Origin: Desulfobacterales bacterium
GTDB taxonomy: Bacteria; Desulfobacterota; Desulfobacteria; Desulfobacterales; UBA5852
NCBI GenBank assembly: GCA_963674755.2
Contig: CAXXVS010000003.1
Span: forward strand, 288,001-352,000
Length of the DNA: 64,000 nt
Direction: 5' to 3'
The translations under genes and the position numbers were made by a program. The notes beneath the pieces were generated by a model. It made no database searches, was not told where the DNA came from, and was given only the letters and a program-made list of their open reading frames with translations. Of the stretch, positions 11,484 through 34,760 are shown in pieces (position 1 is the first letter of the stretch; the number at the start of each line of letters is the position of its first letter).

Positions 11484-11515
11484 AAGCGGGAAAAACCCTA
11501 GCGTTTTTCCCGCTT
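11484..11515. terminator. Hairpin between the convergent cytochrome c3 and dsrN genes, probable terminator
   Basis: AAGCGGGAAAAAC-N6-GTTTTTCCCGCTT, a perfect 13-bp stem. Confidence 0.75.
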
Positions 11516-11516
11516 C

Positions 11517-12935: not shown

Positions 12936-13122
12936 CAAAAGGGTCCTTTTTCTTCAATCCAGCCGGGGCTTCCGAATAACGGATCGATCCAAGTACAAAG
13001 GCGAAAAATGGGGGCTTTGTGATCCTTCCCATCTTCCGCCTTGTGGGTACAAATCATCTTCTCCGATGGCACCGATCGCCACCGAAAAACGTGAGCTCAT
13101 TCTTCAACTGACAAACGGGCGG

Positions 13123-13368
13123 TTAGTCTTCGTGCTCGGCACTCGCCTGCTTGCCGGTGCCCGGCATGCCGTACATGGAAGTGCTGCCGCTGGACCAATA
13201 TTCCAGGACCCCGTCCTCCACGAGTTTGTTCACGATTTTCTTGGCCTCGCGAGGTTTCATTTCAAGGATCTTGGACAAATCGTTGAAGTAGAATTTGCTC
13301 TTCGATTTCAGCTTCTTGGTCAGCGCTTCGACGATTTTGGCTTTCGCCTCTTCATAGTCCATTGCCAT
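13123..13368 (-). CDS. dsrD: Dissimilatory sulfite reductase protein DsrD
   Basis: KSKFYFND, LEYWSSGSTSMYG; follows dsrB. Confidence 0.95.
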   Translation of the reverse strand: MAMDYEEAKAKIVEALTKKLKSKSKFYFNDLSKILEMKPREAKKIVNKLVEDGVLEYWSSGSTSMYGMPGTGKQASAEHED

Positions 13369-13450
13369 GGTGTACCTTCTTTCATGATATGCCGGAGCAG
13401 CCCCGTTGGGGTTATGCTCCGGCCATTAAGTAAGCATCCCTTACGTCGGC

Positions 13451-14596: not shown

Positions 14597-14608
14597 GGTG
14601 CGTCCCCC

Positions 14609-15922
14609 TTATCTCTGATGGTGTTTACGGTACTCGTTGATGTCACGGTCCCAGCCGCCTTCCACCTCGTCTTCTTTCCAGAAGATGTAGGGGTTGGAGC
14701 GCGGTTCTTTAACATGCTGCGGCACCGGATCGATTCCGGTGGCTTCGAGCAGCTTCTGGAAGCCCTGACGTTTCATGAGCTCACCGAGACGTTCGCGGTT
14801 CTTGCCTTCTTCCATCCACCAGTCCCAAACCGCTTCGATGACTTCCTTGATTTCATCGTAGGGTTCTTCCACCTTGATGAAGGGAACCAACAGGGAGCCC
14901 ATCTGGGCACCGTCCAGGATGGGGGCCTTGGCACCGGCCAGCATGGATGCGCCGCGGTCGTCGCCGATGCGCAGGGCACGCGGCATGACATTGATGCAGT
15001 GCATGCAGCGGGTACATTCTTTGTTGTCGATCTTAAGGGCCTTGCCATCCATCCACATGCATTTCGTGGGGCAGAGATCGATGACTTCCTTCTGGATGTC
15101 GAAGGCACCCCAGTCGCGGCCGGAATGGGCACCGGCGTTGGGCGGAAATTCGCCGCCGATGTAAGCCTGGACCGCTTCCTGGTCGATTTTGATGTCGTCT
15201 CTCCAGGTGCCGATGAAGGACAGGTCGGACCGGGCGATGGAGGCCACGCAGCAATTGGGGCAGCCGTCGAACTTGAATTTGAATTTGTAGGGGAAGGCCG
15301 GACGATGGAGTTCGTCCTGGTATTCCTGGGTCAGGGTGTAGCACAGCGCCTGGGTGTCGTAGCAGGCATATTCGCAACGGGCCTGGCCCACGCAGTCGGC
15401 CGGTGTCCGGAGGTTGGAGCCGGAGCCGCCAAGGTCCTGGTTGTAAGTATGTGTCAGTTCGTAGAAAATTTCTTCCAGCTGGGGTGTCGTGGTACCCAGG
15501 AAGATGATGTCGCCCGTGGACCCGTGCATATTGGTGATGCCGCTGCCGCGGAAATCCCACAGGTCGCACAGGTTACGCAGGTACTCGGTGGTGTAGAACT
15601 TGCCGCCCGGCTGGTTCACGCGCATGGTGTGAAAATGGGCCACCCCGGGGAAATTTTGGGGTTGGTCGCAGTAACGACCGATGACGCCGCCGCCGTATCC
15701 GAAGACGCCCACGATACCGCCGTGCTTCCAGTGGGTGGTGCCGTCTTCGTAAGAAAGTTCCAAAATGCCCAAGAGGTCTTCCACCACGTCCTGGGGGATC
15801 TGGAATTCAATGTTTTCAGCGTTTTTGGCGCGAACTTCAGCCTGCTGCTTCAAGTCGGACACAAAGCTTGGCCAAGGCCCGGACTCAAGCTGGTCCAACA
15901 AAGGCGTTGCGTGTTTTGCCAT
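14609..15922 (-). CDS. dsrA: Dissimilatory sulfite reductase alpha subunit
   Basis: TPLLDQLESGPWPSFV, THWKHGG, KFKFKFDGCPNCC, CTRCMHC. Confidence 0.98.
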   Translation of the reverse strand: MAKHATPLLDQLESGPWPSFVSDLKQQAEVRAKNAENIEFQIPQDVVEDLLGILELSYEDGTTHWKHGGIVGVFGYGGGVIGRYCDQPQNFPGVAHFHTMRVNQPGGKFYTTEYLRNLCDLWDFRGSGITNMHGSTGDIIFLGTTTPQLEEIFYELTHTYNQDLGGSGSNLRTPADCVGQARCEYACYDTQALCYTLTQEYQDELHRPAFPYKFKFKFDGCPNCCVASIARSDLSFIGTWRDDIKIDQEAVQAYIGGEFPPNAGAHSGRDWGAFDIQKEVIDLCPTKCMWMDGKALKIDNKECTRCMHCINVMPRALRIGDDRGASMLAGAKAPILDGAQMGSLLVPFIKVEEPYDEIKEVIEAVWDWWMEEGKNRERLGELMKRQGFQKLLEATGIDPVPQHVKEPRSNPYIFWKEDEVEGGWDRDINEYRKHHQR

Positions 15923-19468: not shown

Positions 19469-21202
19469 CTATTTCACCCGGCCCTCCCGCCAGGCCTGGA
19501 TCAACTGGTCGTAGTCGACGGTCTCTCCCTTGGGTTTTTCATTGGCCAGCTTGGCTTTGGGAGCCCCGGGCTGGTTCAGCCAGTAAGCCTCGTCTTTCAC
19601 AGGATTAAGTTTGGGCCCGCACTCCCCCTGGGTTCCGGAACGGGCGATGCGCTGCATCACGCGGTCCATCTCCTTGGCCAGATTGTCCATGGCGGTGTTT
19701 ACCGTTACCTCGCCGGCCACGGCCTCGCCGATGTTCTGCCACCACAACTGGGCCAGCTTCGGATAATCAGGCACGTTGACGCCGGTGGGCGTCCAGGCCA
19801 CGCGGGCCGGGCTGCGGTAGAACTCCACCAAGCCGCCCAGTTTGGGTGCCCGCTCGGTAAAGGATTTGTCGCGGATGTCGCTGTCGCGGATGGGCGTCAA
19901 GCCCACATGGGCTTTTTTAAGCGATGTGGTCTTGGCCACGCAGAACTGCGCGAACAGCCAGGCGGCCTTGCGGCGCTCCAGGGGCGTGCTCTTCATGAAC
20001 GTCCATGAACCGCAATCCTGGTAGCCCAGCTTCATGCCCTCTTCCCAATAGGGTCCGTGGGGCGAAGGGGCCATACGCCACTTGGGGGTGCCGTCCTCGT
20101 TCACCGTGGGACCCGGCTCCACCATGCTTGGCAGAAAGGCCGTATACCAAAAAATCTGCTGGGCCACGCTGCCGTTGGCCAGGAAAGGCAGATAGGTATA
20201 AAAATCCATGCCAAGGCTGCCGGGAGGAGCATATTTTCTTAGCCATTCCATATACTTGCGAAGGGCATATTTGGCCGCCGGGCCGTTGGTGGCGCCCCCG
20301 CGGGACACGCTGGCACCCACCGGACGGCAACCTTCCATGCGGATTCCCCATTCATCGACCGGCCGGCCGTTGGGGAGCCCCTTGTCGCCGGCACCGGCCA
20401 TGGACAACCAGGCATCGGTGAAGCGCCATCCCAGATCCGGGGCTTTCTTACCGTAATCGTTGTGACCGAAAATGGCCTTGCCGTCGATCTCCCGGACATG
20501 TTCGGTGAAAAACTCGGCGATGTCCTCGTAGGCCGACCAGTTGACCGGCACTCCCAGGTCATAGCCGTAGATCTCCTTGAACTGCTGCCGGAAGTCAGGC
20601 CGTTTGAACCAGTCGTAGCGGAACCAATAAAGATTGGCGAACTGCTGATCCGGCAGCTGATAGAGTTTGCCGTCCGGGCCGGTGGTAAAGGACTTGCCCA
20701 TGAAGTCATCCACGTCCAGGGTCGGCAGGGTTACGTCCTTGCCCTCGCCGGCCATGAAATCGCTCAGCGGGACGACGTAGCCATAGCGGGCATGGGTGCC
20801 GATGAGGTCGGAATCGTTGATCCAGCCATCGTAAATATTCTCGCCCGAAGCCCACTGGGTCTGGAGCTTTTCGATGACGTCGCCTTCCTGGATCAGGTCG
20901 AAAGACACCTTGATGCCGGTGATCTCTTCGAAGGCCTTGGCCAGGACCTTAGCCTCATACTCATGGGTGGGGATGGTTTCCGAGACCACCTTGATGTTCA
21001 TATCCTTGAAGGGCCGGGCCGCGTTGATAAACCACTCCATTTCTTTCATCTGCTGCTCTTTGGTCAGGGTTGAGGGCTGGAATTCCTCATCAACCCATTT
21101 CTTGGCGGCGGCCATATCAGCCACGGCCGGACCCGCCGCCATGGCAAACATGATCGCCAATGCAACTCCCAGAAGCATGGTCTTTCTCATTTTTACTTGC
21201 AT
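19469..21202 (-). CDS. Glycerol ABC transporter substrate-binding protein (GlpV-like)
   Basis: Signal peptide; EFQPSTL, YQLPDQQFANLYWFRYDWF, PHGPYW, NVPDYPKLAQLWW; lies in the glp locus. Confidence 0.85.
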   Translation of the reverse strand: MQVKMRKTMLLGVALAIMFAMAAGPAVADMAAAKKWVDEEFQPSTLTKEQQMKEMEWFINAARPFKDMNIKVVSETIPTHEYEAKVLAKAFEEITGIKVSFDLIQEGDVIEKLQTQWASGENIYDGWINDSDLIGTHARYGYVVPLSDFMAGEGKDVTLPTLDVDDFMGKSFTTGPDGKLYQLPDQQFANLYWFRYDWFKRPDFRQQFKEIYGYDLGVPVNWSAYEDIAEFFTEHVREIDGKAIFGHNDYGKKAPDLGWRFTDAWLSMAGAGDKGLPNGRPVDEWGIRMEGCRPVGASVSRGGATNGPAAKYALRKYMEWLRKYAPPGSLGMDFYTYLPFLANGSVAQQIFWYTAFLPSMVEPGPTVNEDGTPKWRMAPSPHGPYWEEGMKLGYQDCGSWTFMKSTPLERRKAAWLFAQFCVAKTTSLKKAHVGLTPIRDSDIRDKSFTERAPKLGGLVEFYRSPARVAWTPTGVNVPDYPKLAQLWWQNIGEAVAGEVTVNTAMDNLAKEMDRVMQRIARSGTQGECGPKLNPVKDEAYWLNQPGAPKAKLANEKPKGETVDYDQLIQAWREGRVK

Positions 21203-21369
21203 GAGGTTCCTCCTTTGCGCCTTCGGGGGTGGGATTGGTTTGTTCGGACGGCATCGCCGGCGAGAAGGCTGTATCGCCTGACGAAAAGGGCACGTCCTTT
21301 TTTAAGCCGAGGTGGAGCGACAGTGAACATGAGGGACGTTAAACCGCCTAACGTCCCCATGCGTCGGGA

Positions 21370-21654
21370 CTATGCCCAGCGCATGGCGATAAACACCCAA
21401 ACCACGGAGATCGGCATGGCGTACCACAGATTTGCATCGGTCAGTCCGAGCCAGGCCAGATGAATATAAGCGGTTCCCAACAACCCGATAAAAAAGCGGG
21501 TTCCCCGTGTGGTCGGAATTTTCAGAAATCCGCGGCGCTCGATGGTGGGGGAAACCAGTTCCCAGACGAACATGCCGACTAGCATCAGGAAGATGGTGAT
21601 GAAAAAGATCGCCGTCGGGACCGTCCAATACATCCACGCTAAGCTCATTCGCAT
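21370..21654 (-). CDS. Small integral membrane protein of the glycerol ABC system (GlpU/DUF2160-like)
   Basis: WMYWTVPTAIFF, R.GFL.IPTTRG.RFFI; three TM segments; sits between permease and binding protein. Confidence 0.78.
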   Translation of the reverse strand: MRMSLAWMYWTVPTAIFFITIFLMLVGMFVWELVSPTIERRGFLKIPTTRGTRFFIGLLGTAYIHLAWLGLTDANLWYAMPISVVWVFIAMRWA

Positions 21655-21660
21655 TCCCTT

Positions 21661-22464
21661 CTATACACGACCCAGGGCGAACCCCTTGGCAAGGTGATTG
21701 CGCACGAACCAGATAACCAGAGCCCCCGGTACGATGGTGAGGACACCGTTGGCGGCCAGCAGTCCCCAATCCAAACCCGTGGCGCTGATGGTACGGGTCA
21801 TGGTGGCCACGATGGGTTTGGCCTCGGTCACCGTCAGCGTCCGGGCAAACAGCAGCTCGACCCAGCTGAACATGAAGCAGAAGAAGGCCGTCACCCCCAC
21901 TCCGGCCCGGATGAGCGGAAGGAAGAGCGTAAAGAAAAATCGTGGGAAGGTATAGCCGTCAATAAAGGCGGTTTCGTCGATCTCCTTGGGAACCCCCGAC
22001 ATGAACCCTTCCAGGATCCAGACCGCCAGGGGCACGTTGAACAGGCAGTGGGCCAAGGCCACCGCGACATGCGTATCGATAAGATTCACGGTGGAGTAGA
22101 GTTGGAAGTAGGGCAGCAGGAAGACGGCCGGCGGAGCCATGCGGTTCGTCAACAGCCAAAAGAACATCTGTCCGTCGCCCAGAAATTTATAGCGCGAAAA
22201 AGCGTAGGCGGCCGGCAGGGCAAACGCCAGCGACATCACGGTATTCATGCCAACGTAGATGATGGCATTGATATAGCCCGAGTACCAGGTCGGGTCGGTG
22301 AAGATCTTGATGTAGTTTTTGAAAGTCATGTTGGCGGGATATAAGGAAAACGAACTCAGGATATCGGCGTTGCTGCGCAGGGACATGTTGACCATCCAAT
22401 AGATGGGGACCATGAGCAGCAGGAAATAGAAGAGCAACGCCATGGTTCGCTTGCGTACTTTCAT
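21661..22464 (-). CDS. Carbohydrate ABC transporter permease (glycerol system)
   Basis: EAA loop VPKEIDETAFIDG; multiple TM segments. Confidence 0.9.
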   Translation of the reverse strand: MKVRKRTMALLFYFLLLMVPIYWMVNMSLRSNADILSSFSLYPANMTFKNYIKIFTDPTWYSGYINAIIYVGMNTVMSLAFALPAAYAFSRYKFLGDGQMFFWLLTNRMAPPAVFLLPYFQLYSTVNLIDTHVAVALAHCLFNVPLAVWILEGFMSGVPKEIDETAFIDGYTFPRFFFTLFLPLIRAGVGVTAFFCFMFSWVELLFARTLTVTEAKPIVATMTRTISATGLDWGLLAANGVLTIVPGALVIWFVRNHLAKGFALGRV

Positions 22465-23345
22465 GAAACCTTGTCTCCTTTCCCGACGTTCAGGAGGGCC
22501 TGGTAAAAGATGAAGCTGAATAGCAATACGATGAGGAAATAGATCAGGGAAAACGCCGCCGCCGGTCCCAGATCAAATTGTCCGGTGGCCAGCTTGACCA
22601 GATAGATCGATAAAAAGGTCGTGGAATTGCCCGGCCCGCCGCCCGTGAGGGAAAAGGGTTCGGCGTAAATCAGAAAACTGTCCATCCAGCGCAGCAGCAC
22701 GGCGATGGTCAAAACCCCGCGCATCTTGGGCAGCTGGATATAGCAAAAGATGGCCCAGGGCGAGGCCCCGTCAATTTTGGCCGCCTGGTAATAGGCCTCC
22801 GGAATGGCCCGCAAGCCGGCATAGCACAGCAGAGCCACCAGCGGTGTCCAGTGCCAGACCTCCATGGCCATCAGGGTGATCCAGGCGAAGGAGGGCCGCG
22901 CCGTATGATCGAAGGGCACGTCGAGCAGGTGCAGACTGTTGATGCCGACCCCGAACAGACCGATGTCCGGCCGGGTGAAGATGATCCAGATGGTGCCGAT
23001 CACATTCCAGGGAATCAGCAGCGGGATGGCCAGGGTGACCAGGCTGGCGGAAACCCCCCAGCCCTTTTTGGGCATGGCCAGGGCGATGATGATGCCCAGG
23101 GGAATTTCAATCAGCAGCACCAGACCGGAAAAAAGGAATTGCCGCCACAGCGCATCGTGCAGACGGTAGTCCGTCAGCATCTGTTTGAACCATTCCGTTC
23201 CCACGAAGACGGCGTTGTCCGGGCCAAAAATGTCCTGAACGGAATAGTTGACCACGGTCATCAGGGGTATAATGGCGCTGAAGGCCACCACGACAAACAC
23301 CGGCAGCACAAGGTACCAGGCCCGGTTGTCCTCCCACTTTTCCAT
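22461..23345 (-). CDS. Carbohydrate ABC transporter permease (glycerol system)
   Basis: EAA loop IPEAYYQAAKIDGAS, LTGGGPG. Confidence 0.9.
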   Translation of the reverse strand: MEKWEDNRAWYLVLPVFVVVAFSAIIPLMTVVNYSVQDIFGPDNAVFVGTEWFKQMLTDYRLHDALWRQFLFSGLVLLIEIPLGIIIALAMPKKGWGVSASLVTLAIPLLIPWNVIGTIWIIFTRPDIGLFGVGINSLHLLDVPFDHTARPSFAWITLMAMEVWHWTPLVALLCYAGLRAIPEAYYQAAKIDGASPWAIFCYIQLPKMRGVLTIAVLLRWMDSFLIYAEPFSLTGGGPGNSTTFLSIYLVKLATGQFDLGPAAAFSLIYFLIVLLFSFIFYQALLNVGKGDKVS

Positions 23346-23357
23346 GCCGCTCTCCCC

Positions 23358-24443
23358 TTATCCTACCAGTCGTTCATCGGCATATAGCTTGGTCCGCGAC
23401 GGCGGAAATTTCAGCCAGGCCCTCCGGGATGGCACCGTGTGCCCTTCCGGCAGGCGGGCCCGGATGATATGGTTATTGAGGCCGGCGGTCAGAATCTTGA
23501 AGCTGCCCTGGTCCTCCAGCGCCTTGACCGTTACCGGCACCCCGCCTTCGACGGCTGCATCATGGACCTCCAGATGCATGGGGCGGATGCCCAGTTCCAG
23601 TACACCTTTGGTTTGGGCTCCCCGGGCGGCGGTTTCCGGCAAGAGGCCAATGGTCACGTCGTCGACCCGAGCCATCTGTCCCTCGAGGGTGCATGGCAGG
23701 AAATTCATCCCCGGACTCCCGATGAAATACCCCACGAATTTATGCTGAGGATTTTCAAAAAGTTGCTCCGGCGTGCCGATCTGAACGATTTCGCCCTCGT
23801 ACATGATGATCACCTGATCCGCAAAGGTGAGGGCTTCCACCTGGTCATGGGTTACGTAGATCAGCGTCAGTCTCAGCTGTTCGTGGATTTCCTTGAGCTT
23901 GCGGCGCAAATGCCATTTCAAATGAGGATCGATGACGGTCAGAGGTTCATCGAAGAGCACGGCCGCCACGTCGCTGCGCACCAGGCCCCGCCCCAGGGAA
24001 ATTTTTTGCTTGGCATCGGCGCTCAAACCGGCGGCTTTTTTCCCCAGATCTTCGGTCAGATCGAGAATGTCGGCCACCTCCTTAACGCGGGCGGCCGTAT
24101 CGGTCTTGTTAAAGCCCCTGTTTTTCAAGGGAAACGCCAGATTGTCGTAAACACTCATGGTATCGTAGAGAACCGGAAACTGAAAAACCTGGGCGATGTT
24201 GCGTTTGTCCGGCGGCAGTGCGGTGACATCGACGCCATCGTAAAGCACGTTCCCACGGCTGGGCTTGAGCAGTCCCGAAATGACGTTGAGGAGGGTGGTC
24301 TTTCCGCATCCGGAGGGGCCTAAAAGGGCGTAGGCGCCGCCGTCCTCCCACACCGTATTGATTTCCTTGAGCGCATAATCCGACGGTGTTTTAGGATTCC
24401 GATTGTAGGAGTGAGCGATTTCGACAAATTCGATGCGCGCCAT
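23358..24443 (-). CDS. ABC transporter ATP-binding protein (glycerol system, second ATPase)
   Basis: Walker A GPSGCGKT, FDEP, YVTHDQ. Likely start is ATG 24443 (MARIEF), not 24755. Confidence 0.9.
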   Translation of the reverse strand: MARIEFVEIAHSYNRNPKTPSDYALKEINTVWEDGGAYALLGPSGCGKTTLLNVISGLLKPSRGNVLYDGVDVTALPPDKRNIAQVFQFPVLYDTMSVYDNLAFPLKNRGFNKTDTAARVKEVADILDLTEDLGKKAAGLSADAKQKISLGRGLVRSDVAAVLFDEPLTVIDPHLKWHLRRKLKEIHEQLRLTLIYVTHDQVEALTFADQVIIMYEGEIVQIGTPEQLFENPQHKFVGYFIGSPGMNFLPCTLEGQMARVDDVTIGLLPETAARGAQTKGVLELGIRPMHLEVHDAAVEGGVPVTVKALEDQGSFKILTAGLNNHIIRARLPEGHTVPSRRAWLKFPPSRTKLYADERLVG

Positions 24444-24471
24444 AATCCTCTCCCCGTTGTCGCCAAGCCCC

Positions 24472-25554
24472 TTAAGTGTTGCGCTGGGGTGCGGCCACCA
24501 GGCGGCCCTCGGTGTCGTAGACAAATAGATGCTTCGGATGGATAAACACGGTAATCGTGCTGCCCATGGAAACGGGATACACCCCTTCCTGCTGCACCAC
24601 AAAAGCGCTCTCACCGCGCTTGATATAGACGAAGGTTTCCGAGCCGTTGATTTCGGCAAGATCCACCTTGCCGCTGATCGCGATGTCGCCGTCGCCTTGA
24701 CTGGAAAGCCACAAATGGTTGGATCGGAAGGCGAATTGATAGGATCCCGCTGCAAGTCCGTTCAAATGCCCTACCAAAGGAATGGGGATATCCCCCCCCA
24801 TCACCGCTTGAGCGCCTTCGATCTTGCTTGGAAGGGCGTTGATCGGCGGGTCACTGAAAACCTCGGCGGTTCGCAACATTTCGGGACGTTGATACACCGC
24901 AGCGGTCGATCCGGTCTGCAGCACCCGCCCTTCGTCGAGAACCACGACGTTGCCCCCCAGCATGAGGGCCTCGGAAGGTTCTGTCGTCGTGTAGACGACG
25001 ATAGCGGACCGCTTACGAAAGATATCCTGCAGCTCCTCGCGCAGTTCCTCCCGCAGTTTATAGTCCAGATTGACCAAGGGTTCATCCAGCAACAGCAATT
25101 GGGCATTTTTGACCAGCGCCCGCGCAATGGCTGTGCGCTGCTGTTGGCCGCCGGACAATTCGGCGGGCAGCCGCTGCAATAATCCTTCAAGATGCAGGAT
25201 TTCAGCGGTCTCGCGGACCTTACGGTCAATCTCGGGTTTATTCAGCCCGCTGCGGCGCAAGGGTGAGGCGATGTTTTCATAGACACTAAGGGAAGGATAG
25301 TTGATGAACTGCTGGTAGACCATGGCGACACCGCGTTTGCGCACGGAAACGCCGGTGACATCCGCACCATCCACCAGCACCTGTCCACGGGTGGGTCGGT
25401 CAAGCCCCGCCATGATGCGCAACAGGGTGGTTTTTCCGGCCAGGGTTCGACCTAAAAGGACATTCCGCGATCCGGTCTCAAATTCGAGGCTGATCCCTTT
25501 CAGATGGGTTTCGCCGCCGACGATTTTGTCGACATTGCTAAGCGCCAGCCCCAT
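24472..25554 (-). CDS. ABC transporter ATP-binding protein (glycerol system, first ATPase)
   Basis: GRTLAGKT, LSGGQQQR, LLDEPL. Confidence 0.9.
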   Translation of the reverse strand: MGLALSNVDKIVGGETHLKGISLEFETGSRNVLLGRTLAGKTTLLRIMAGLDRPTRGQVLVDGADVTGVSVRKRGVAMVYQQFINYPSLSVYENIASPLRRSGLNKPEIDRKVRETAEILHLEGLLQRLPAELSGGQQQRTAIARALVKNAQLLLLDEPLVNLDYKLREELREELQDIFRKRSAIVVYTTTEPSEALMLGGNVVVLDEGRVLQTGSTAAVYQRPEMLRTAEVFSDPPINALPSKIEGAQAVMGGDIPIPLVGHLNGLAAGSYQFAFRSNHLWLSSQGDGDIAISGKVDLAEINGSETFVYIKRGESAFVVQQEGVYPVSMGSTITVFIHPKHLFVYDTEGRLVAAPQRNT

Positions 25555-25693: not shown

Positions 25694-26554
25694 TCATTCC
25701 TGATTACCGTCATCGGTACCACCCACCGAATTGACCGGCGGTTGAGCCACATGCAGTTCCACATCGCCCGCGTTCATGACCTCGATCAGGGCCTCGGTGG
25801 GGCGGCGATCGGTAAACAGGGCGTCGATCTCGCCAATGCTGCCCAGCCGCACCATGGCGTTGCGTCCGAACTTGGTATGGTCGGCCGCCAAAAAGACCTT
25901 GCGGGAATTGTCGATAATGGCCCGCGCGGCACGCACCTCACGATAGTCGAAATCGAGCAGGGTGCCGTCCATGTCGATGCCGCTGATGCCGATAATGCCA
26001 TAATCCACCCGGAACTGCTGGATGAAGTCGATGGTCAAGGGCCCTACGATGCCCCCGTCCCGGGGCCGCACCAGGCCGCCGGCCACGATGATTTCGAAGT
26101 GATCGTTGCCGGCCAGGATGGAGGCCACGTTGAGGCTGTTGGTGATCACCCGCAGTCGCTCGCGTCCGCAGAGCAGCTTGGCAATCTCCTCGGTCGTCGT
26201 GCCGATATTGATAAAAAGGGAGGCGTGGTCCGGTATGCAGGCCGCCACCATGCGGGCGATCTGCTCTTTCTCCTTGAGGCACAGAACTTTGCGCTGGGTA
26301 TAGGCCACATTTTCCGTACTGGGCGGCAAGCCGGCCCCCCCATGATAGCGGTGGATAAGCCCCTCGCGGCTGAGAATATTGATATCCCGGCGAATGGTCT
26401 GGGGTGTGACCTCGAATTGGGCCGCCAGGTGTTCGATGGTGATAAAACCTTTGGCGCGCACCAGATGCTGAATCTTGGCATGCCGCTCTCTTACCGGAGC
26501 GGATTTGCCGGTGGTTTCGGGGGGATCTTGGGCGGGATCTTTTTTTGATTTCAT
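25694..26554 (-). CDS. glpR: DeoR/GlpR family transcriptional repressor
   Basis: HTH VTPQTIRRD, RYHGGA, NIGTTTE, ITNSL, ADHTKFGR; central in the glycerol locus. Confidence 0.9.
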   Translation of the reverse strand: MKSKKDPAQDPPETTGKSAPVRERHAKIQHLVRAKGFITIEHLAAQFEVTPQTIRRDINILSREGLIHRYHGGAGLPPSTENVAYTQRKVLCLKEKEQIARMVAACIPDHASLFINIGTTTEEIAKLLCGRERLRVITNSLNVASILAGNDHFEIIVAGGLVRPRDGGIVGPLTIDFIQQFRVDYGIIGISGIDMDGTLLDFDYREVRAARAIIDNSRKVFLAADHTKFGRNAMVRLGSIGEIDALFTDRRPTEALIEVMNAGDVELHVAQPPVNSVGGTDDGNQE

Positions 26555-26619: not shown

Positions 26620-26639
26620 AATGTTCGTTTATGAAAATA
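26620..26639. promoter_or_regulatory. Putative GlpR operator between the divergent glpR and glpA
   Basis: AATGTTCGTTTATGAAAATA; the left half resembles the E. coli GlpR half-site WATGTTCGWT. Confidence 0.6.
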
Positions 26640-26787: not shown

Positions 26788-28422
26788 ATGGCTGCCCTTT
26801 GGCCCGCCTCAAACTCAACGCATCAACATCCGAGGTCCGCTTTGGAAACCCAGGTACTCATCATCGGCGGCGGGGTCACCGGGACCGGCTTGGCCCGTGA
26901 TCTGACGTTGCGGGGGGTTGCCTGCCTTCTGGTGGAAAAGCAGGATATCAATGCCGGCGCCTCGGGCGGCAATCACGGCCTGCTGCACAGCGGCGCCCGC
27001 TATATCGCATCCGACCCGGCCGCCGCGGCCGAATGCCACCGGGAAAACCTGCTGTTGAAACAATTGGCGCCCCACTGCATTGAAGACACCGGCGGCCTTT
27101 TTGTGGCCGTGGCCGGCGACGACGAAAACTATGTCGCCGATTTTCCCGCCAAGTGCGCGGTCTGCGGTATTCCAGCCAGGCCTCTGACGCCCACAGAGGC
27201 CCGCCAGATGGAACCGGCCCTGTCCAAGGACATCATCGCCGCCTATGCCGTGGATGATGCCGCCATCGACCCCTTCAAGCTCTCCCTGGATAACTTGGCC
27301 CAAGCTCGGCAAAACGGCTGTCAGCTCATGCGTTTTTCCCAGGTGACGGGCATTGCGACCCGCTCCGGTCGCATCCAGACCGTCCAGGTGCGCAACCACC
27401 TGACGGGCCGCGCAACCGACATCCGCGCCGACGTCGTGGTCAATGCCGCCGGTGCCTGGGCCGGTCAGGTGGCGGCCCTGGCCGGCATTCCGATCCACAT
27501 CCGCTATTCCAAAGGCAGTCTGCTCGTTACCCACCATCGTATCGGGGGCCGGGTCATCAATCGCCTGCGCAAGGCCACCGACGGCGACATTCTGGTCCCC
27601 GGGGGTACGGTCTCAATTTTAGGGACAACCTCCGAACGCTGCACCTCGCCGGATGACATCCATCCGAAAGTGCATGAAGTGGACCACATTATCGACGAGG
27701 GCGCGGCCATGATTCCGGCACTGGCCACCATCCGCTATATCAGGGCCTATTGCGGGGTGCGCCCCTTGATCAGCAGTTCCGACGAGGGGGATGATCGCAG
27801 TGTCAGCCGCGGCTATGCTTTAATCGACCACGCCACGGAAGATCCCGGCCTGGAAAACTTCATTACGATATCGGGCGGCAAGCTGACCACCTTTCGACTG
27901 ATGGCCGAAAAGACGGCCGATCGGGTGTGCCGCCGGCTGAGTCATTGCAGCCCTTGCCGTACCCACTGCGATCCGCTGCCCCAGACGGTCGATGCCCGCT
28001 GGACCGAACCGGGCCTGGCGCCCAGCCTGTGGGTTCAAAACAACGACTCCCGGGATATACTCCTGTGCGAATGCGAAATGGTGCCCCAAAGCGTGGTGGA
28101 CCAGATTGTCCAGTCCATTCGCAACCAGAACGGCCATCCCAGCCTGAACGCCATCGGGCTGCGCAGCCGGATCGGCAAGGGGCCTTGCCAGGGCACCTTC
28201 TGCAGCCAGCGGCTGGCCGCCTATTTATACGATTTGGGAGCGCTGACCCATGACCAGGGCCTTCACGAGCTGCGCCAGTTTCTGGAGAAGCGCTGGCGGG
28301 GCCAGCAACCCCTTTTATGGGATATATCCCTGGCCCAGGCCGAGCTGCTGGAGGCCATGCACAGCGGCCTGTTTGGGCTGGAGCAGGTGGATGCCCCACC
28401 GCCCGGCGATGACCGGCCTTGA
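26788..28422 (+). CDS. glpA: Anaerobic glycerol-3-phosphate dehydrogenase subunit A
   Basis: IIGGGVTG, NHGLLHSGARY, GVRPL, GGKLTTFRLMAE, BFD-like CECE...GPCQGTFC. Start uncertain (26683-26788). Confidence 0.92.
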   Translation: MAALWPASNSTHQHPRSALETQVLIIGGGVTGTGLARDLTLRGVACLLVEKQDINAGASGGNHGLLHSGARYIASDPAAAAECHRENLLLKQLAPHCIEDTGGLFVAVAGDDENYVADFPAKCAVCGIPARPLTPTEARQMEPALSKDIIAAYAVDDAAIDPFKLSLDNLAQARQNGCQLMRFSQVTGIATRSGRIQTVQVRNHLTGRATDIRADVVVNAAGAWAGQVAALAGIPIHIRYSKGSLLVTHHRIGGRVINRLRKATDGDILVPGGTVSILGTTSERCTSPDDIHPKVHEVDHIIDEGAAMIPALATIRYIRAYCGVRPLISSSDEGDDRSVSRGYALIDHATEDPGLENFITISGGKLTTFRLMAEKTADRVCRRLSHCSPCRTHCDPLPQTVDARWTEPGLAPSLWVQNNDSRDILLCECEMVPQSVVDQIVQSIRNQNGHPSLNAIGLRSRIGKGPCQGTFCSQRLAAYLYDLGALTHDQGLHELRQFLEKRWRGQQPLLWDISLAQAELLEAMHSGLFGLEQVDAPPPGDDRP

Positions 28423-28444
28423 CGACAACGGCTAAAATACGTCC

Positions 28445-29752
28445 ATGAGCCCGGCGCAACCTGAAATACGCTGCGATTTGCTGATCATCGGCACCGGTAT
28501 GGCCGGTATGGCCGCCGCCCTGTTTGCCGCCCGGCGCGGCATCGACACGGTTCAAGTGGGGATGACCGGTGAAATCAATTTTGCCAGCGGTTTGCTGGAT
28601 CTCCTGAGCGTCCATCCGACGGGGTCGCACCAAACCTGGTCCAATCCCTGGGAGGCCATCGCCCAGTTGATTATCGACCAACCTCATCATCCATATGCAC
28701 ATATCGGCGCTGAAACAATCCGGGCCGGAATGGAAGAGCTGATCACTTTTTTAAACGAAGCGGATCTGCCCTATCGCTACCAGCCCCAGCGCAATACCCA
28801 GGTGATCACGCCTTTAGGCACGGTTAAAACCACCTACGCTCTGCCGGAATCCATGGCAGCGGTCGAAAAGGCTTTGCAAGCCGCCACCCCTTGTCTGCTG
28901 GTTGATTTTCCCGGACTCAAAGGGTTCAGCGCCGGCCAGATCAGAGCCACCTTACAAAAGCGCTGGCCCGCTTTAAAGGCGGTGCGGCTGCCGTTTCCGG
29001 GACTGAGCGGGGAACTGCAAACCGAGCGGATGGCCCGTCGGCTGGAAACCCCCGGGGTGGCGAATCTGCTGGCCGCTTCGATTCGCAGCCACCTTGAGGA
29101 TGCCCGTGTGGTGGGGCTGCCGGCCGTTCTGGGGATTGCCCGCACCCGGCAAGTTTTTGAAAATCTTCAGGACGCCCTCGGCGTGCCGGTCTTTGAAATC
29201 CCCACCATGCTGCCGGCCGTCACCGGCGTTCGCCTGCGGGAATGTTTCGAACGGCACCTGCCCCGCATGGGGGTCCGGGCCCGCTACCAGCAAAAGATTG
29301 TATCCAGCCCGCGCCTGTCGGACGGTGAATTTATCGCCCCGCTGGGGGGCGAAAGCGCCGAGGTTCAGGTACGGGCTCGGGCCGTCATCCTGGCCAGCGG
29401 GCGGTTTTTCGGCCAGGGCCTGCATGCCGACCGGCACACCATTCGGGAGACCATCTTCAATCTGCCGGTCTACCAACCGGCCACCCGGACCCATTGGCAC
29501 CGTAAAACCCTTTTCAGTCACAAGGGACACCCGATCCACAAGGCCGGCCTGGTCGTCGACCGCCTGTTGCGGCCCTGTGACGAACAGGGACGCTATATTT
29601 ATCCCAATCTGTTCGCCGCCGGATCCATCCTGGCGCACCAGGACTGGATTCGCCAGAAATGCGGCAGCGGCCTGGCCATCGCCAGCGCCTATGCCGCCGT
29701 GCACGCCGGCCAATCCTTCTTGAATTTAACCCCTATGAATAAAGTCGAATAA
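28445..29752 (+). CDS. glpB: Anaerobic glycerol-3-phosphate dehydrogenase subunit B
   Basis: IIGTGMAG, EIPTMLP..G.RL, LASGRFFGQGL, NLFAAGS, CGSGLAI. Confidence 0.9.
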   Translation: MSPAQPEIRCDLLIIGTGMAGMAAALFAARRGIDTVQVGMTGEINFASGLLDLLSVHPTGSHQTWSNPWEAIAQLIIDQPHHPYAHIGAETIRAGMEELITFLNEADLPYRYQPQRNTQVITPLGTVKTTYALPESMAAVEKALQAATPCLLVDFPGLKGFSAGQIRATLQKRWPALKAVRLPFPGLSGELQTERMARRLETPGVANLLAASIRSHLEDARVVGLPAVLGIARTRQVFENLQDALGVPVFEIPTMLPAVTGVRLRECFERHLPRMGVRARYQQKIVSSPRLSDGEFIAPLGGESAEVQVRARAVILASGRFFGQGLHADRHTIRETIFNLPVYQPATRTHWHRKTLFSHKGHPIHKAGLVVDRLLRPCDEQGRYIYPNLFAAGSILAHQDWIRQKCGSGLAIASAYAAVHAGQSFLNLTPMNKVE

Positions 29753-29788
29753 ACGACTGCTAACCGTTGCCAAGGATGATGAACCCAC

Positions 29789-31432
29789 TTGATGCCGTCC
29801 CCCAACACCATCGCTAGCATCGCGCTGGCCATCTGCCTGGCGGGTGTCCTGTGGCGCATCTGCCGCTGGTTGCGTAGCCCGATCGGTCTGGAAAGCGAGG
29901 GCCTGTCCTTCGGTCGACGGCTGGGTGCGGCCTTGCAGGCTTGCCGGAAGGTTCTTTGCAGCCGGCGCATTTTCCGGATGGCTGCCGCCTCTCTATGGGA
30001 GACCCTCCTGTTGGGACATCTGTTGCAGCGCCATCCGTGGCGCTGGGCTGCCCACATGGCGGTTTGCTACGGCTTTTTAGCGCTGGTGGTCTTCCATGCC
30101 CTGGATGACTGGAGCGCCCCGCTTTTTTTCGCCGACTACGTCCCCACGCGCAATCCGTTCCTTTGGCTGCGCAACCTGATGGCGGCCGTGGTGTTGGCCG
30201 GTCTTCTGGTGGCCGTGCTCCGGCGACGGCAAGCCCCTTTAAAGATCCCCCGCGCGCGCGGTGACCGGTTCCTTCTGCTGGCGGTAGCTGTGCTGGTGAT
30301 TAGCGGGGTTGTGCTGGAGAGCACCCAAATCCTTTCCCCGGTGATTTTTCAGGAAATGGTGGAAGATTACATGGGCGCCGACGATCCCGGAGACGTGGCC
30401 GCCCTGCAGTCTTATTGGGCCGCTGAAATGGGCACCCTGCCGCCATCCCATGACACCATCGTCCCGGAGGGTGTCATGGCCGCCGGCCGCGAGCTGCATG
30501 AGAGCTATTGTGCGGATTGCCACTCACGACCCCAGGCGGCCTTTCTGTCCTATCCGCTCTCTCGCCTGTTGAAACCCGCCATGATCGCCTTGCGAGATCA
30601 TCGCGTGGACCTGTGGTTGTGGCGTCTCCATTTCTGGGCCGCCTGCCTGGCGCTGGCCTGTCTGCCCTTCAGCAAATTCTTCCATTTGGTGGCCACCCCT
30701 TTCAATCTGCTGGCCCGGACCGCAGGCCCCGTAGCGGCCACCCCGGCCCTGCAGCCCATGCGCCGGGCCCTGGCCCTGGATGCCTGCACCCATTGCGGCA
30801 TCTGCAGCCAGCATTGTTCCGTGGCCCCCATCTATAGGGTCATCCCCAATCCGACCATTCTGCCGTCGGAAAAGCTGCCGGCGGTCAAGCACGATCGAAT
30901 GTCGCCCCATTCGACGAATGAAGTGCTGGCGGAAGGCAGTTTCATCTGCACCCTGTGCGGCCGGTGCACCCAATGGTGCCCCTCCGGGATCGACTTGCAG
31001 GATCTGTGGCAGGCCACCCGCAACGATCTGGCCCCCGGCGGAAGAGCACCGATTCCGGGCCGTTCCGCTGCTGCGCCTCTTTCATCCCCCGTGGTTACGG
31101 CACCGGTTTCGCTGGGATTGAGCGACCGGCCGGAGACCTTCTGGGCCTGTGTCCAGTGCACCACCTGCACCAGCGTCTGCCCGGTGGTGGCGGCCAGCGA
31201 CGACCCCCGGGGCGATCTGGATCTGACCCCCCAGCAAATCATGAACCTGATGCGGCTGCAGCTCAAGGACCAGGCCCTGGGCTGCCGGATGCTGTGGGAC
31301 TGCGTCACCTGCTACAAATGTCAGGAACACTGCCCCCAGGACGTCAAGGTGGCGGACATCCTTTATGAACTACGCAATATCGCCTGGCAGCAGGGAAGAT
31401 CAGAGGGCCCGGCCAACGGGAGGTCCGTCTAG
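29789..31432 (+). CDS. Membrane protein: NarI/HdrE-like heme-b domain with an inserted CxxCH heme c, plus two HdrC-like 2x[4Fe-4S] modules
   Basis: TM helices with His residues (AHMAVCYG, RLHFW, PFSKFFH); CADCH at 30509-30523; CTHCGICSQHC, CTLCGRCTQWCP, CVQCTTCTSVCP, CVTCYKCQEHCP. Confidence 0.8.
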   Translation: MMPSPNTIASIALAICLAGVLWRICRWLRSPIGLESEGLSFGRRLGAALQACRKVLCSRRIFRMAAASLWETLLLGHLLQRHPWRWAAHMAVCYGFLALVVFHALDDWSAPLFFADYVPTRNPFLWLRNLMAAVVLAGLLVAVLRRRQAPLKIPRARGDRFLLLAVAVLVISGVVLESTQILSPVIFQEMVEDYMGADDPGDVAALQSYWAAEMGTLPPSHDTIVPEGVMAAGRELHESYCADCHSRPQAAFLSYPLSRLLKPAMIALRDHRVDLWLWRLHFWAACLALACLPFSKFFHLVATPFNLLARTAGPVAATPALQPMRRALALDACTHCGICSQHCSVAPIYRVIPNPTILPSEKLPAVKHDRMSPHSTNEVLAEGSFICTLCGRCTQWCPSGIDLQDLWQATRNDLAPGGRAPIPGRSAAAPLSSPVVTAPVSLGLSDRPETFWACVQCTTCTSVCPVVAASDDPRGDLDLTPQQIMNLMRLQLKDQALGCRMLWDCVTCYKCQEHCPQDVKVADILYELRNIAWQQGRSEGPANGRSV

Positions 31433-32286
31433 TGCAAACCGCCTATCTCTATTTTCCGGGATGTAAACTGACCCCCTTTCTGCCCCAATACGACCGGGCC
31501 ACGCGGGCCGTATTGCGCGCCTTCGACATCCATCTGGACGATACCGAACTGAACTGCTGCGGCTACCCGGTGCGTCACCGGAATCTGGCCGCCGCCATGC
31601 TGGCCGCCGCCCGCAACCTGGCCATGGCGGACCGGGTGGGCCTGCCCCTGCTGACGCCCTGCCAATGCTGCTATGGCCAGCTCAAACAGGCGGCCTACTG
31701 GCTGGGCGAAAACAGCGACCTGCGCATCTTCGTCAACCATGAACTGGCGGCCGAGGGCCTCCATTGGCGCCCCGGCATCCCGGTCCGCCACCTGCTCTCC
31801 GTCCTGGTCGACGATATCGGGCTGGCCAAGATACAGAAACGGATACGCCGGCCCCTGCAGACCCTGCCCGTGGCTGCCCATTACGGCTGCCACGCCCTGC
31901 GCCCGGGCCATGTCGTACAGTTGGACAACCCCCTGGCCCCCACGATTTTCGAGAATCTGCTCTCCGCCGCCGGTGGCGCCCCGGTGGCGTGGCCACTGCG
32001 GCTGGAATGCTGCGGCCACGCTGTGCGCAGCCAAAACCCGACCCTGGCGGCCGAGTTGATGCAACGCAAGTGTGACGACGCACGCGCCGCCGGCGCCCGT
32101 CTTCTTGTCACGGCCTGCACCTATTGTCAGATGCAGTTTACGGGCATCTACGAAACACCATACGTTTCCGAAGGCCGAGGCGGTGATTTACCCGCGGTAC
32201 TGGTTTCCCAGCTTTTAGGGTGGGCCATGGGGTTGCCGGACGACCAGCTGGGGGAAGAGATCAAAAGCCTGACAGCCCTCCTTTGA
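31432..32286 (+). CDS. HdrB-like CCG-domain iron-sulfur protein
   Basis: [32 protein letters not shown]; the GTG start overlaps the upstream TAG. Confidence 0.87.
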
Positions 32287-32383
32287 GCCTCGGCTCCGGT
32301 CTGTATTGCTTTTTCTTTGGCTTTTAGACATGCTGGGAGCATCCCTTCCGGATCGATCAATCCTTTTAATAAGGAGGCCGTGC

Positions 32384-33892
32384 ATGGACCCATACATCGG
32401 CGCCGTGGATCTCGGCACCACCAGCAACCGTTTTATTATCTTCGATCGCCAGGGCCGCATCGTCGGCGTGGATCAGATGGAGCACGAGCAGATTTTCCCC
32501 AAGCCGGGCTGGGTGGAGCACAATCCCATGGAAATCTGGGACAACACTTGTTCTGTAATCCGGGGAGCCCTCGGGAAAACGGGTATTCGGGGAACGGAGA
32601 TTGCGGCCATCGGCATCACCAACCAGCGCGAGACGGCCGTGGTCTGGAACCGTCATACCGGCCAGCCCTATTACAATGCCATCGTCTGGCAATGCACCCG
32701 CACGGACGCCATCTGCAACGATCTCATGGCCGACGGCGGCCAGGACCGCTTTCGCACCAAGACAGGGCTGCCCATCGCCACCTATTTTTCGGGCCCCAAA
32801 ATCAAATGGATTCTGGATAACGACCCACACGCCCGCCAGGCGGCGGAAGCAGGGGATGCCCTGTTCGGCACCATCGAAACCTGGATCATCTGGTGGCTGA
32901 CCGGCGGGCCCCGGGGCGGCGCCCATGTCACCGATGTCACCAACGCCAGCCGCACCCTGCTGATGAACCTGCAAACCCTGGCCTGGGATGAGGAAATCCT
33001 GGATATCCTGAGCGTGCCCCGCCGGATGCTGCCCCGCATCGTGCCTTCGGTGGACCGGGAAACCTGGGGCCATACCCTCCTGGACGGACCTTTGCGCGCC
33101 ACCGTTCCCGTGTGCGGGGCCCTGGGCGATCAGCAGGCCGCCCTGGTGGGCCAAACGTGTTTCGAGGCTGGCGAAGCCAAAAACACCTATGGCACCGGCT
33201 GCTTCCTGCTGATGAATACGGGCCACGAACCGATTGTATCCCAACATGGATTGCTCACAACGCTGGCCTATCAGATGAGCGGCGAAAAGCCCGTCTACTG
33301 CCTGGAGGGCTCCATTGCCATCGCCGGCGCCCTGGTGCAGTGGTTTCGCGACAATCTGAACCTGATCGAGCAGGCGCCTGAAATCGAACAATTGGCCCTA
33401 TCGGTGGAAGACAACGGCGGAGCCTATATCGTACCGGCCTTTTCCGGTCTCTTCGCGCCCTATTGGCGTTCGGACGCCCGGGGTGTCATCGTGGGGCTGA
33501 CGCGGTACGTCAACAAGGGCCATCTGGCCCGGGCCGTCCTGGAAGCCAATGCGTTCCAGGCCCGCGACATCGTGGAGGCCATGAACAAGGATTCGGGTGT
33601 TGCCCTGACCAGCCTCAAGGTGGACGGCGGCATGGTGGCCAACAACTTGCTGATGCAGTTTCAGTCCGACATCCTCGATGTTCCCGTCATACGGCCCGCC
33701 GTCACGGAGACCACGGCCCTGGGGGCGGCCTACGCCGCCGGGCTGGCCGTGGACTACTGGTCCGGGCCCGATGAGCTGCGCCGGAACTGGTCCATGGACC
33801 ATACCTGGGAACCCCGCATGGGGGCGGAAGCGCGGGAAAAAGCCTATCAGGGATGGCAGAAAGCCGTGACACGCACCTTTGACTGGGTTTGA
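32384..33892 (+). CDS. glpK: Glycerol kinase
   Basis: [52 protein letters not shown] 32384 follows AAGGAGG. Confidence 0.96.
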
Positions 33893-33909: not shown

Positions 33910-33939
33910 AAAAAGCCGCAGCGTTAATCGCTGCGGCTT
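33910..33939. terminator. Bidirectional terminator between glpK and the YkgJ-family gene
   Basis: AAAAAGCCGCAGCG-TTAAT-CGCTGCGGCTT. Confidence 0.78.
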
Positions 33940-33974: not shown

Positions 33975-34760
33975 TCAGGCCGACGGATCTTCCGATTTCA
34001 TTTTGAAATCACCGAGTTTAAACAGGATGAACTTGAGCCAGCGCATCCCGAAATTCAACAGCGCGATCTCATCGTTTTTAATCTCGTCCAGAGTGGCGGC
34101 ATCGATGTCGTAGCGCTTCAGGAAGCTGCTGCTGAAGACGAACTCCCGAAACTTGTCGATGTTGTAGCTGGCCAGAAAAAACATCTGCTTGCTCTGGTCG
34201 GTCAGCTTGATGTTCTGGGGGAAGGAGCGCTTGCGCACCACCAGGTCGGTCCACTCGGCATTGATCTCGTCATGGCGGTCTGCCCCCTGATCCTGGCGCC
34301 ACTCCTCCACCGTCCAGGTCTGCTCCTCCTCGAAGCCCCGGCAGTGCGCCTCGTCCACGAAAAAATAGAAGCCCTCGTCGTCCGCCCCTTCCTTGTGGGT
34401 CAGGGCGGCCACGCCCAACGGATAGTAGCGGCAGGTGGTGGGGCGATCCTGATAGACGATGCAGCCCTCCTCCCGGACGAAGGGGCAGGATTGCTGGTCG
34501 TCCTCCAGCAACTTCAGGGTAACCACCGGCAAATCCGTTTTCTCCATGATATGGGGCTCGGTGTAAATGGCCAGAAATTCTTCCGATGACAGCCCCAGGC
34601 GGTTTTTCAGCCGGATCACGTCATAGGGCGTCAGGATGATGTTGATCCCCCGGCAGCACTGGGTAAAGCAGGGCACCCCGGGATGGCATTTGAATTTAAA
34701 GCGATTTTTTAGGCCTACACGCATGGGGGCGATCTGGGCCATGGCTTCCTTATCGGTCAT
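33975..34760 (-). CDS. YkgJ family cysteine-cluster protein
   Basis: C..CFTQCC, CPFV, CIVYQDRPTTCRYYP. Confidence 0.85.
   Translation of the reverse strand: MTDKEAMAQIAPMRVGLKNRFKFKCHPGVPCFTQCCRGINIILTPYDVIRLKNRLGLSSEEFLAIYTEPHIMEKTDLPVVTLKLLEDDQQSCPFVREEGCIVYQDRPTTCRYYPLGVAALTHKEGADDEGFYFFVDEAHCRGFEEEQTWTVEEWRQDQGADRHDEINAEWTDLVVRKRSFPQNIKLTDQSKQMFFLASYNIDKFREFVFSSSFLKRYDIDAATLDEIKNDEIALLNFGMRWLKFILFKLGDFKMKSEDPSA

Follow-up and report, generated by a model that had tools for sequence, protein, structure and literature searches.

The closest described relatives of the gene pair considered here were named in silico in 2009. In the genome paper of Desulfobacterium autotrophicum (Desulforapulum), HdrF denotes proteins that combine transmembrane, HdrC and HdrB parts, and two HdrF were placed beside glpAB and dicarboxylate transporters, with a proposed electron flow from GlpAB through them (Strittmatter 2009, PMC2702500). 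We analysed a stretch of 64,000 nucleotides (the window) from a Desulfobacterales bacterium (GCA_963674755.2, contig CAXXVS010000003.1, positions 288,001 to 352,000) that carries such a pair, here called X and Y, between glpA-glpB and the glycerol kinase gene glpK. X appears to be a membrane subunit with b hemes, a heme c and four cubanes, and Y is an HdrB-like protein.

X-Y has the parts named in the HdrF definition (several transmembrane helices, HdrC-like and HdrB-like domains, whether encoded by a single gene or by two), and glpA-glpB directly upstream agrees with the clustering of HdrF with glpAB or etfAB (PMC2702500). HdrF1/F1' (and HdrF2) of D. autotrophicum likewise consist of transmembrane, HdrC-like and HdrB-like parts clustered with glpAB, in one case split on two genes (PMC2702500). 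D. autotrophicum encodes a full-length X orthologue with a CxxCH motif (P0213, WP_049770398.1; 36% over 544 amino acids). The genome G108 encodes this protein letter for letter and in its two glpA-glpB-X-Y loci DASS and TRAP transporters come next, a context that fits the figure legend given for HdrF1/F1' (PMC2702500). The 2009 account is in silico only; its accessible text makes no mention of a heme c, a fourth cubane, or HdrA-linked or stand-alone copies, contradicts itself as to which HdrF is split, and describes HdrF2 as a selenoprotein, a feature not seen in either X. More recently, a glycerol cluster with heterodisulfide-reductase-like genes was reported in 6 of 15 Pseudodesulfovibrio type strains, together with growth on glycerol (Bidzhieva 2024, PMC11505543). 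The initial annotation had proposed an undescribed system; these two papers take that claim away, as one named glpAB-linked HdrF proteins and in the other, genes resembling heterodisulfide reductase are part of this very glycerol cluster. The name HdrF1 is also in use for another protein (PMC8982180). For the conserved heme c with Met190, for Cys79 of Y, for the portability of the pair and its HdrA-linked form, and for any assay of it, we found no prior account in print; this is a weak negative, most subscription papers lying outside the search.

Among solved structures, EMO (EtfD, an ETF:(methyl)menaquinone oxidoreductase; PDB 9OJN, and the S. aciditrophicus enzyme, SaEMO) has the same five-helix heme-b domain, cubane domain and non-cubane domain, and its three His are spaced as in X. 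EMO, however, is a single chain that has two cubanes and lacks a heme c. X-Y is split over two chains and carries four cubane motifs, a heme-c loop and a fourth His (H103), for which SaEMO has A101. The electron donor of EMO is ETF, while X-Y at this locus adjoins glpAB (other loci were not searched for etfAB). With the E. coli-type GlpABC the locus shares GlpA and GlpB, both above their cut-offs, and module 2 of X together with Y amounts to two cubanes and two CCG domains. GlpC, however, lacks a membrane domain, and there is no GlpC here (on the GlpC family, with a cut-off of 278 bits, X scores 73.6 and Y 24.8). The earlier statement that X and Y stand here instead of GlpC holds by descent, but module 2 and Y rebuild the GlpC plan from HdrC/HdrB-type parts.

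Y matches the HdrB of HdrABC/Flx-Hdr and methanogen HdrDE at all ten cluster Cys, module 2 of X is HdrC-like, and X-Y-hdrA(-mvhD-flx) clusters exist. X-Y nevertheless falls below the HdrB and HdrC cut-offs, Y forms its own branch with an extra Cys, and the HdrC part is extended by the membrane domain, the heme-c loop and a second Fe-S module. The HotSeep-1 complex of HdrA and a heme c/CCG protein (AMM42179-80; PMC10553843) shares the idea of a membrane complex that associates with HdrA, bears CCG and is linked to cytochrome c; as the same protein it was set aside by its description, AMM42180 being a 4-heme 'QmoC fusion' in the supplement of that paper. X-Y would work as a wire in the manner of EMO/HdrDE and fits the loose HdrF definition; judged by the features that define EMO, GlpABC and a bona fide HdrB, it is none of these.

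Predicted cofactor sites of X and Y

The locus consists of five co-oriented genes, with glpR and a glycerol-type ABC transporter divergent from them:

26788..28422, + strand: glpA, the FAD subunit, whose C-terminus has a set of [2Fe-2S] Cys (C427, C429, C467, C472)
28445..29752, + strand: glpB, flavoprotein subunit, NF003725 and TIGR03378 above cut-off
29789..31432, + strand: X, HdrF-type membrane subunit with a predicted five-helix NarI/HdrE-like domain, an inserted monoheme-c loop and two 2x[4Fe-4S] modules
31432..32286, + strand: Y, HdrB-like subunit with ten non-cubane-cluster Cys and a family-specific extra Cys79
32384..33892, + strand: glpK, glycerol kinase, TIGR01311, 741.3 bits

GlpA passes an equivalog cut-off (TIGR03377, 596.7 bits against 552.8), GlpB (NF003725, 549.8 bits against 345) and GlpK also pass curated cut-offs, and X and Y pass no NCBIfam cut-off. 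In GlpA, C467 and C472 are kept in 63/63 relatives and C427 and C429 in 62/63. The probable start of X is the ATG at 29792 (the database protein has 546 amino acids), and base 31432 is common to its stop codon TAG (31430-31432) and the GTG start of Y. The initial annotation had read from the DNA the gene order glpA-glpB-X-Y-glpK, an X with NarI/HdrE-like helices and His ligands, one CADCH in an inter-helix loop and four CxxCxxCxxxC motifs, and a two-CCG HdrB-like Y overlapping X by one base. All of this was borne out, the gene order by the family matches of GlpA, GlpB and GlpK, the membrane part by five helices with conserved H89, H103, H281 and H299.

The CADCH of X (241-245) is its only CxxCH, and the four CxxCxxCxxxC motifs start at 333, 387, 454 and 505. 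By hydropathy and in a model from AlphaFold2 (alignment of 107 rows; mean pLDDT 84.4, pTM 0.79), X has five membrane helices, with a loop of 90 residues separating helix 4 from helix 5, and two Fe-S modules. Motifs, conservation and fold match together suggest a topology and a set of b hemes, heme c and cubanes for X, with the sites below; the extra Cys of Y is listed with them:

30053..30097, + strand: H89 and H103 in helix 2 of X, predicted heme b ligands, proximal and distal
30356..30523, + strand: M190 (30356-30358) and CADCH (30509-30523), both in the loop that joins helix 4 to helix 5, predicted to bind a His/Met heme c, probably periplasmic
30629..30685, + strand: H281 and H299 in helix 5 of X, predicted heme b ligands, distal and proximal
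30785..30979, + strand: Fe-S module 1 of X (C333-C397), two predicted cubanes beside the membrane domain, continuous with single-chain EMO-type relatives (P0336, P0370)
31148..31333, + strand: Fe-S module 2 of X (C454-C515), HdrC-like, two predicted cubanes
31666-31668, + strand: Cys79 of Y, its eleventh Cys, aligned with HdrB G80 (counted by hand)

The solved structure nearest to X is M. smegmatis EtfD/EMO (9ojn; Foldseek E 1.1e-4; Z 22.0, root-mean-square deviation (rmsd) 3.9, 332 aligned). The membrane part compares with NarI at Z 8.9 (rmsd 5.0, 180 aligned), and module 2 with HdrC at Z 11.9 (rmsd 3.9, 96 aligned; HdrC chains E 6e-13). Among close relatives, H89 is kept in 77/78 rows with the residue and H103 in 78/78, and H281 and H299 are kept in 80/80. 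The 18-residue spacing of H281/H299 is that of SaEMO H233/H251, and the spacing of H89/H103 is that of SaEMO H87/A101. In SaEMO, H87/H251 bind the proximal heme and H233 the distal one, with A101 at the second distal site (10.64898/2026.08.18.745454). Judged by spacing against SaEMO, X has His at all four predicted heme-b positions. It also aligns to an EMO-type protein of the same genome at H89, E177, H281 and H299.

The initial annotation had staked its reading of the heme c on the conservation of CADCH, and a CxxCH is found at the equivalent place in 80/80 close relatives and, together with M190, in 77/80 loci of the phylum-wide sample described below, the other three sequences being truncated. 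A chance occurrence of the motif was ruled out by this conservation in close and distant relatives and by the invariance of the loop, where only M190, C241, C244 and H245 do not vary in 121 diverse sequences. This invariance makes a His/Met heme c likely, with the Met upstream of the motif and M190 as the likely sixth ligand. The second heme of CcoP has its Met ligand upstream of the motif. Since the Fe-S end of X should be cytoplasmic, the loop would lie outside, and the conserved heme c is most likely periplasmic. The host has two PF01578 proteins of CcsA size, in keeping with a maturation system for c-type cytochromes, and no match to CcmE was found in this genome. Folded alone, the loop reaches pLDDT 85.0, and its best match is a weak one to CcoP (3mk7_C, Z 3.9, rmsd 3.3, 53 aligned; profile E 0.004, weak). 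Over 48,161 chains Z stayed below 5, which is no demonstration of a new fold, and the ESM Atlas returned NarI-like clusters only for X residues 175-280 (top match 0.85).

The heme-c loop recurs in EMO-type proteins made of one chain (P0336, P0370 and P0362); in P0336 and P0370 the same membrane and heme-c domain is fused to two cubanes and two CCG domains, which is the EMO plan. It is found as well in membrane-only proteins of about 375 amino acids, which have the heme-c part but no Fe-S motifs (P0308, P0352 and P0358).

Y has two CCG motifs, and its best family is HdrB (TIGR03288), below the cut-off (175.3 bits against 345.15). It aligns to methanogen HdrB 5odc_B (E 1.4e-42) with all ten cluster Cys matched (C11, C42, C43, C77, C80, C153, C193, C194, C229 and C232) and also keeps H154. 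C232 is Ser or Thr in 15/79 distant Y rows. The extra C79 is present in 76/76 close rows with the residue and in 78/79 distant rows, one being gapped, and has no counterpart in six ordinary HdrB-type sequences, two of this genome and four soluble glpAB-linked ones. In a tree with four ordinary HdrB, the X-linked Y group on a branch of their own (100/100; 45 Y sequences used). In SaEMO, H534 fills the coenzyme M site beside G535, which replaces HdrB C81; the non-cubane clusters of EMO serve electron transfer only, and the two solved EMOs each lack one HdrB cluster ligand (10.64898/2026.08.18.745454). By alignment, C79 of Y occupies the position where EMO blocks the disulfide site with H534.

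Distribution and gene context of X-Y

A pattern scan gave 127 relatives, of which the best 80 were taken, a set biased to close kin; the named close relatives carrying X are mostly Desulfobacterales and Desulfovibrionales. Among these best 80, X follows glpB in 67, precedes hdrA in 1, does neither in 4 and lies at a contig edge in 8. A profile search of 401 genomes across Desulfobacterota (the phylum sample) matched 65 genomes including this one, and 80 of the 81 other matches were examined for context. In these 80 loci X follows glpB in 3, precedes hdrA in 26, follows hdrA or its partners in 8, does neither in 35 and lies at an edge in 8; Y adjoins X in 78. The initial picture of a G3P-oxidising complex (G3P, glycerol-3-phosphate), in which a membrane subunit with predicted b hemes, a conserved heme c and four cubanes joins an HdrB-like partner, is supported, most close relatives keeping glpB next to X. 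The linkage of X/Y to glpAB that it expected elsewhere holds for one clade only. X-Y as a GlpAB anchor dedicated family-wide was rejected, as only 3/80 phylum-sample loci lie beside glpB and most carriers have no GlpB match. The pair is a portable module, found with GlpAB in this clade and with HdrA or alone in others.

The 64 other carrier genomes are 85-100% complete and, as kin, not independent. GlpB is found in 19 of them, DsrA in 40 and DsrC in 46; in these incomplete genomes there is no GlpB match in 45, no DsrA match in 24 and no DsrC match in 18, the last including 5/5 genomes of family f21 and 2/2 of family f66.

The glp-linked X all group on a single branch that contains no hdrA-linked rows (FastTree 0.994, 162 rows; SH-aLRT 98, 51 rows). 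As to whether HdrA or GlpAB was recruited first, HdrA-linked rows lie near the root of the X tree, but its two outgroup rows do not form one clade; in the Y tree, rooted on four ordinary HdrB, the HdrA-linked rows are nested and the glp-linked rows basal. Sixteen glpB loci stand apart from X, next to soluble hdrC-hdrB-hdrA (4), hdrA (1), an ordinary GlpC (6), no partner (4) or a contig edge (1). GlpC-linked GlpB of the phylum form a separate branch (SH-aLRT 97, 30 rows) and are 29-34% identical to the GlpB described here.

Further arrangements were seen among these loci. In family f39 (L206, L212, L213 and L215), glpA-glpB is followed by soluble hdrC-hdrB-hdrA, a candidate for a cytoplasmic, possibly confurcating G3P dehydrogenase. 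X-Y replaces hdrC-hdrB in X-Y-hdrA-mvhD-flx clusters (L092:278-9524, L171 and L174), and the hdrA of L092, L108 and L109 has an in-frame TGA at a conserved spot, probably for selenocysteine. A glp-branch X-Y pair is present in a Leptospirales-titled bin (L045:2-2379), in a genome that also has a close GlpA, by transfer or mis-binning. The operon is seemingly broken up in L026, L027, L030, L058 and L117/L202, with X-Y and glpAB-glpK apart.

Possible routes for the electrons of glycerol-3-phosphate

The route that we favour, with about even confidence, takes G3P electrons through the cubanes and b hemes of X to menaquinone, with the heme c as a periplasmic extension. The system would be a glycerol-inducible, membrane-bound glycerol-3-phosphate dehydrogenase of EMO/HdrF build, in which the ABC system would take up glycerol, GlpK would phosphorylate it, and GlpA (FAD, [2Fe-2S]) with GlpB would oxidise G3P to dihydroxyacetone phosphate (DHAP). 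Electrons would then enter the four-cubane chain of X and pass to the proximal heme b (H89/H299) and the distal heme b (H103/H281), so that X would reduce menaquinone near the periplasmic face. The His/Met heme c (CADCH and M190) would carry the chain on to the periplasmic side, where it could pass electrons to and from cytochromes, and Y's non-cubane clusters would transfer electrons as in EMO, not as a dedicated DsrC reductase. The menaquinone exit is preferred because the scaffold is that of EMO, C79 appears to lie where EMO blocks its site, and some carriers have no DsrC match. Where GlpAB docks, which way the electrons flow and what finally accepts them are given here as we infer them, and the routes to quinone, DsrC and cytochromes need not be mutually exclusive.

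Complex prediction of GlpB and the GlpA C-terminus with the Fe-S part of X scored 0.52 against 0.00 for the best control, which lends weak support to docking. The mark was reached by 116/157 solved and 2/215 mismatched pairs, and scores of 0.60 or less hold only 18 solved pairs and both mismatches; with our own alignments and three chains these benchmark counts are only rough. Runs agree in at least 88% of contacts, and partner pLDDT is at least 67. The step from G3P/DHAP at -190 mV to quinone at about -80 mV is downhill, and GlpABC has been proposed to bifurcate (both PMC13689815). The genome encodes menA and menG side by side and above cut-off (L196:4920-6532).

Several points weigh against the menaquinone route. 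MenB, MenD, MqnA/D and MqnC were not found in this 97%-complete genome, so that a salvaged precursor or an unknown route would be needed; MqnA/D matched in only 5/21 genomes (this one and relatives), and genomes with neither menaquinone pathway exist (PMC13386864). If quinone were reduced at the outer face, proton-motive force would be consumed in a reaction that runs downhill anyway. The X-Y-hdrA order (26/80 loci) copies hdrC-hdrB-hdrA, where HdrB is the catalytic end. In 4 loci, close GlpAB kin are paired with soluble HdrC-HdrB-HdrA and lack a membrane arm, so that the GlpAB of this clade have an outlet besides the membrane. Y retains in this clade all ten HdrB cluster ligands, of which each of the two solved EMOs has lost one, and a free Cys79 could equally do thiol chemistry. 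D. baculatum has the cluster and no growth on glycerol (second-hand, PMC11505543 citing Santos 2018).

The retained ligands of Y, together with H154, fit a serious but rather unlikely alternative, a G3P:disulfide oxidoreductase. GlpAB would dock on the HdrC-like module of X as HdrA does, the non-cubane clusters of Y would reduce DsrC (disulfide/trisulfide), and the membrane arm would top up or balance electrons from menaquinol or periplasmic cytochromes, like HdrDE/Tmc. Several gene arrangements are consistent with it: X-Y-hdrA(-mvhD-flx) mirrors hdrCBA-flxDCBA, related GlpAB adjoin soluble hdrCBA, and the stand-alone X-Y of the 35/80 loci resembles an HdrDE-type unit. The weak docking of GlpB on the Fe-S part of X would leave Y free as an end point. 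The host has dsrA and dsrB in the window, which makes it a sulfate or sulfite reducer, and three DsrC-family matches; DsrA and DsrC are present in 3/3 glp-linked genomes of the phylum sample. DsrC as acceptor had been suggested from the start, but it is not needed family-wide, as carriers without a match to DsrC (18/64) or DsrA (24/64) show, incomplete as these genomes are. The apparent position of C79 at the site that blocks the substrate in SaEMO also argues against this route, and the Ser or Thr at C232 in distant Y means that the two-cluster catalytic site is not kept family-wide. Two of the DsrC-family matches (C3:2228610-2228909 and C3:2331706-2332005) have identical scores and lie about 103 kb apart, suggesting a duplicated segment. 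At window 10990-15922 (- strand), some 11 kb upstream of glpA, dsrA and dsrB are accompanied by genes of the cobB/dsrN and cytochrome c3 types; this position was not used as evidence.

The heme c bears on an unlikely third route, membrane-potential-driven export. Electrons would pass from the b hemes through the heme c to periplasmic c-type cytochromes, the uphill step from G3P (-190 mV) would be paid by the membrane potential, and a periplasmic hydrogenase or formate dehydrogenase would be fed, for example in syntrophic glycerol growth. Heme c and Met are kept in every untruncated member and in all three gene contexts, which argues for essential work. The EMO scaffold performs reverse transfer driven by proton-motive force (10.64898/2026.08.18.745454). 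HdrA-linked X-Y is found in families without DsrA/DsrC matches, and this genome has nine cytochrome c3 domain matches while ring-forming menaquinone genes were not found. However, the potential of a His/Met heme c is usually well above that of c3 hemes, which would make it a poor last step to c3, and on such potentials the delivery to the c3 pool that the initial annotation proposed would be uphill unless driven by the membrane potential. No periplasmic partner gene recurs beside X-Y in the loci inspected, which were not counted systematically.

A flavoprotein substrate other than G3P (for HdrF, electrons from dicarboxylic acid degradation were considered; Strittmatter 2009) or a silent cluster seems highly improbable. 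Both G108 loci lack glpK and glpR and continue into DASS and TRAP transporters, and one carrier species does not grow on glycerol (second-hand). At this locus, by contrast, GlpA passes its equivalog cut-off, and the genes are flanked by glpK and by the following:

19469..25554, - strand: cluster for a glycerol-type ABC transporter, with genes for two ATPases, two permeases, one small membrane protein and one solute-binding protein
25694..26554, - strand: glpR, DeoR-family repressor, NF008154 323.5 bits, slightly below the 331 cut-off
26621..26638, no strand: candidate GlpR-type operator of 18 bases in the glpR/glpA spacer, two mismatches to the half-site palindrome

A cluster-bearing Pseudodesulfovibrio moreover grows on glycerol with sulfate, and an equivalent transporter cluster has been named glpSTPQUV (both PMC11505543). 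The transporter cluster accompanies glpA-glpB-X-Y in many relatives, and glpR is located upstream of glpA in most. The palindrome against which 26621-26638 was scored is what we take to be the GlpR consensus; with up to three mismatches to it, operator-like sites are found in 23/45 glpR-glpA spacers (kin not independent) against 7/225 base shuffles. A terminator-like hairpin is present beyond glpK (33913-33939, - strand), and a promoter and terminator scan of the locus gave nothing decisive, with the same terminator count as in shuffles. The five genes are probably co-transcribed and induced by glycerol.

A YkgJ-type CxxCxxCC protein (window 33975-34760, - strand) faces glpK and is kept there in 7 among the closest relatives (79-92% identity). 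Elsewhere in the window, a YcaO-family protein adjoins tatC (7184-8923). The genome of this sulfate reducer also encodes a bo3-type quinol oxidase subunit I, a heme o synthase and a proton-efflux P-type ATPase (L198:1827-8422).

Implications for sulfate reducers and syntrophic relatives

X-Y was detected in 65 of the 401 sampled genomes of the phylum, and no biochemistry was found in the literature searched. As a tentative and not very probable idea, we suggest that it may be a general-purpose trans-membrane wire of Desulfobacterota, whose built-in heme c would link cytoplasmic flavoenzymes to the periplasm, with corollaries for HdrA, GlpAB and Cys79. X-Y with HdrA(-MvhD-Flx) would then be a membrane-bound, cytochrome-c-linked electron-bifurcating Hdr that would work also without DsrC. 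GlpAB with X-Y would push G3P electrons by means of the membrane potential to cytochromes in the periplasm and from there to H2 or formate, by which glycerol could be oxidised syntrophically. The extra Cys of Y would give a closed non-cubane cluster of a new kind.

For study, the glp-linked form is the most accessible of the family, with a cheap defined substrate, likely inducibility and presence in cultured Desulfovibrionales. The predictions for M190, H103 and C79 of Y could discriminate between the quinone, cytochrome and disulfide routes, and the outcome would bear on the commoner HdrA-linked form. They touch on the wider question of how mid-potential electrons, from G3P, acyl-CoA or the high-potential branch of HdrA, reach the membrane, DsrC or the periplasm in sulfate reducers and their syntrophic relatives.

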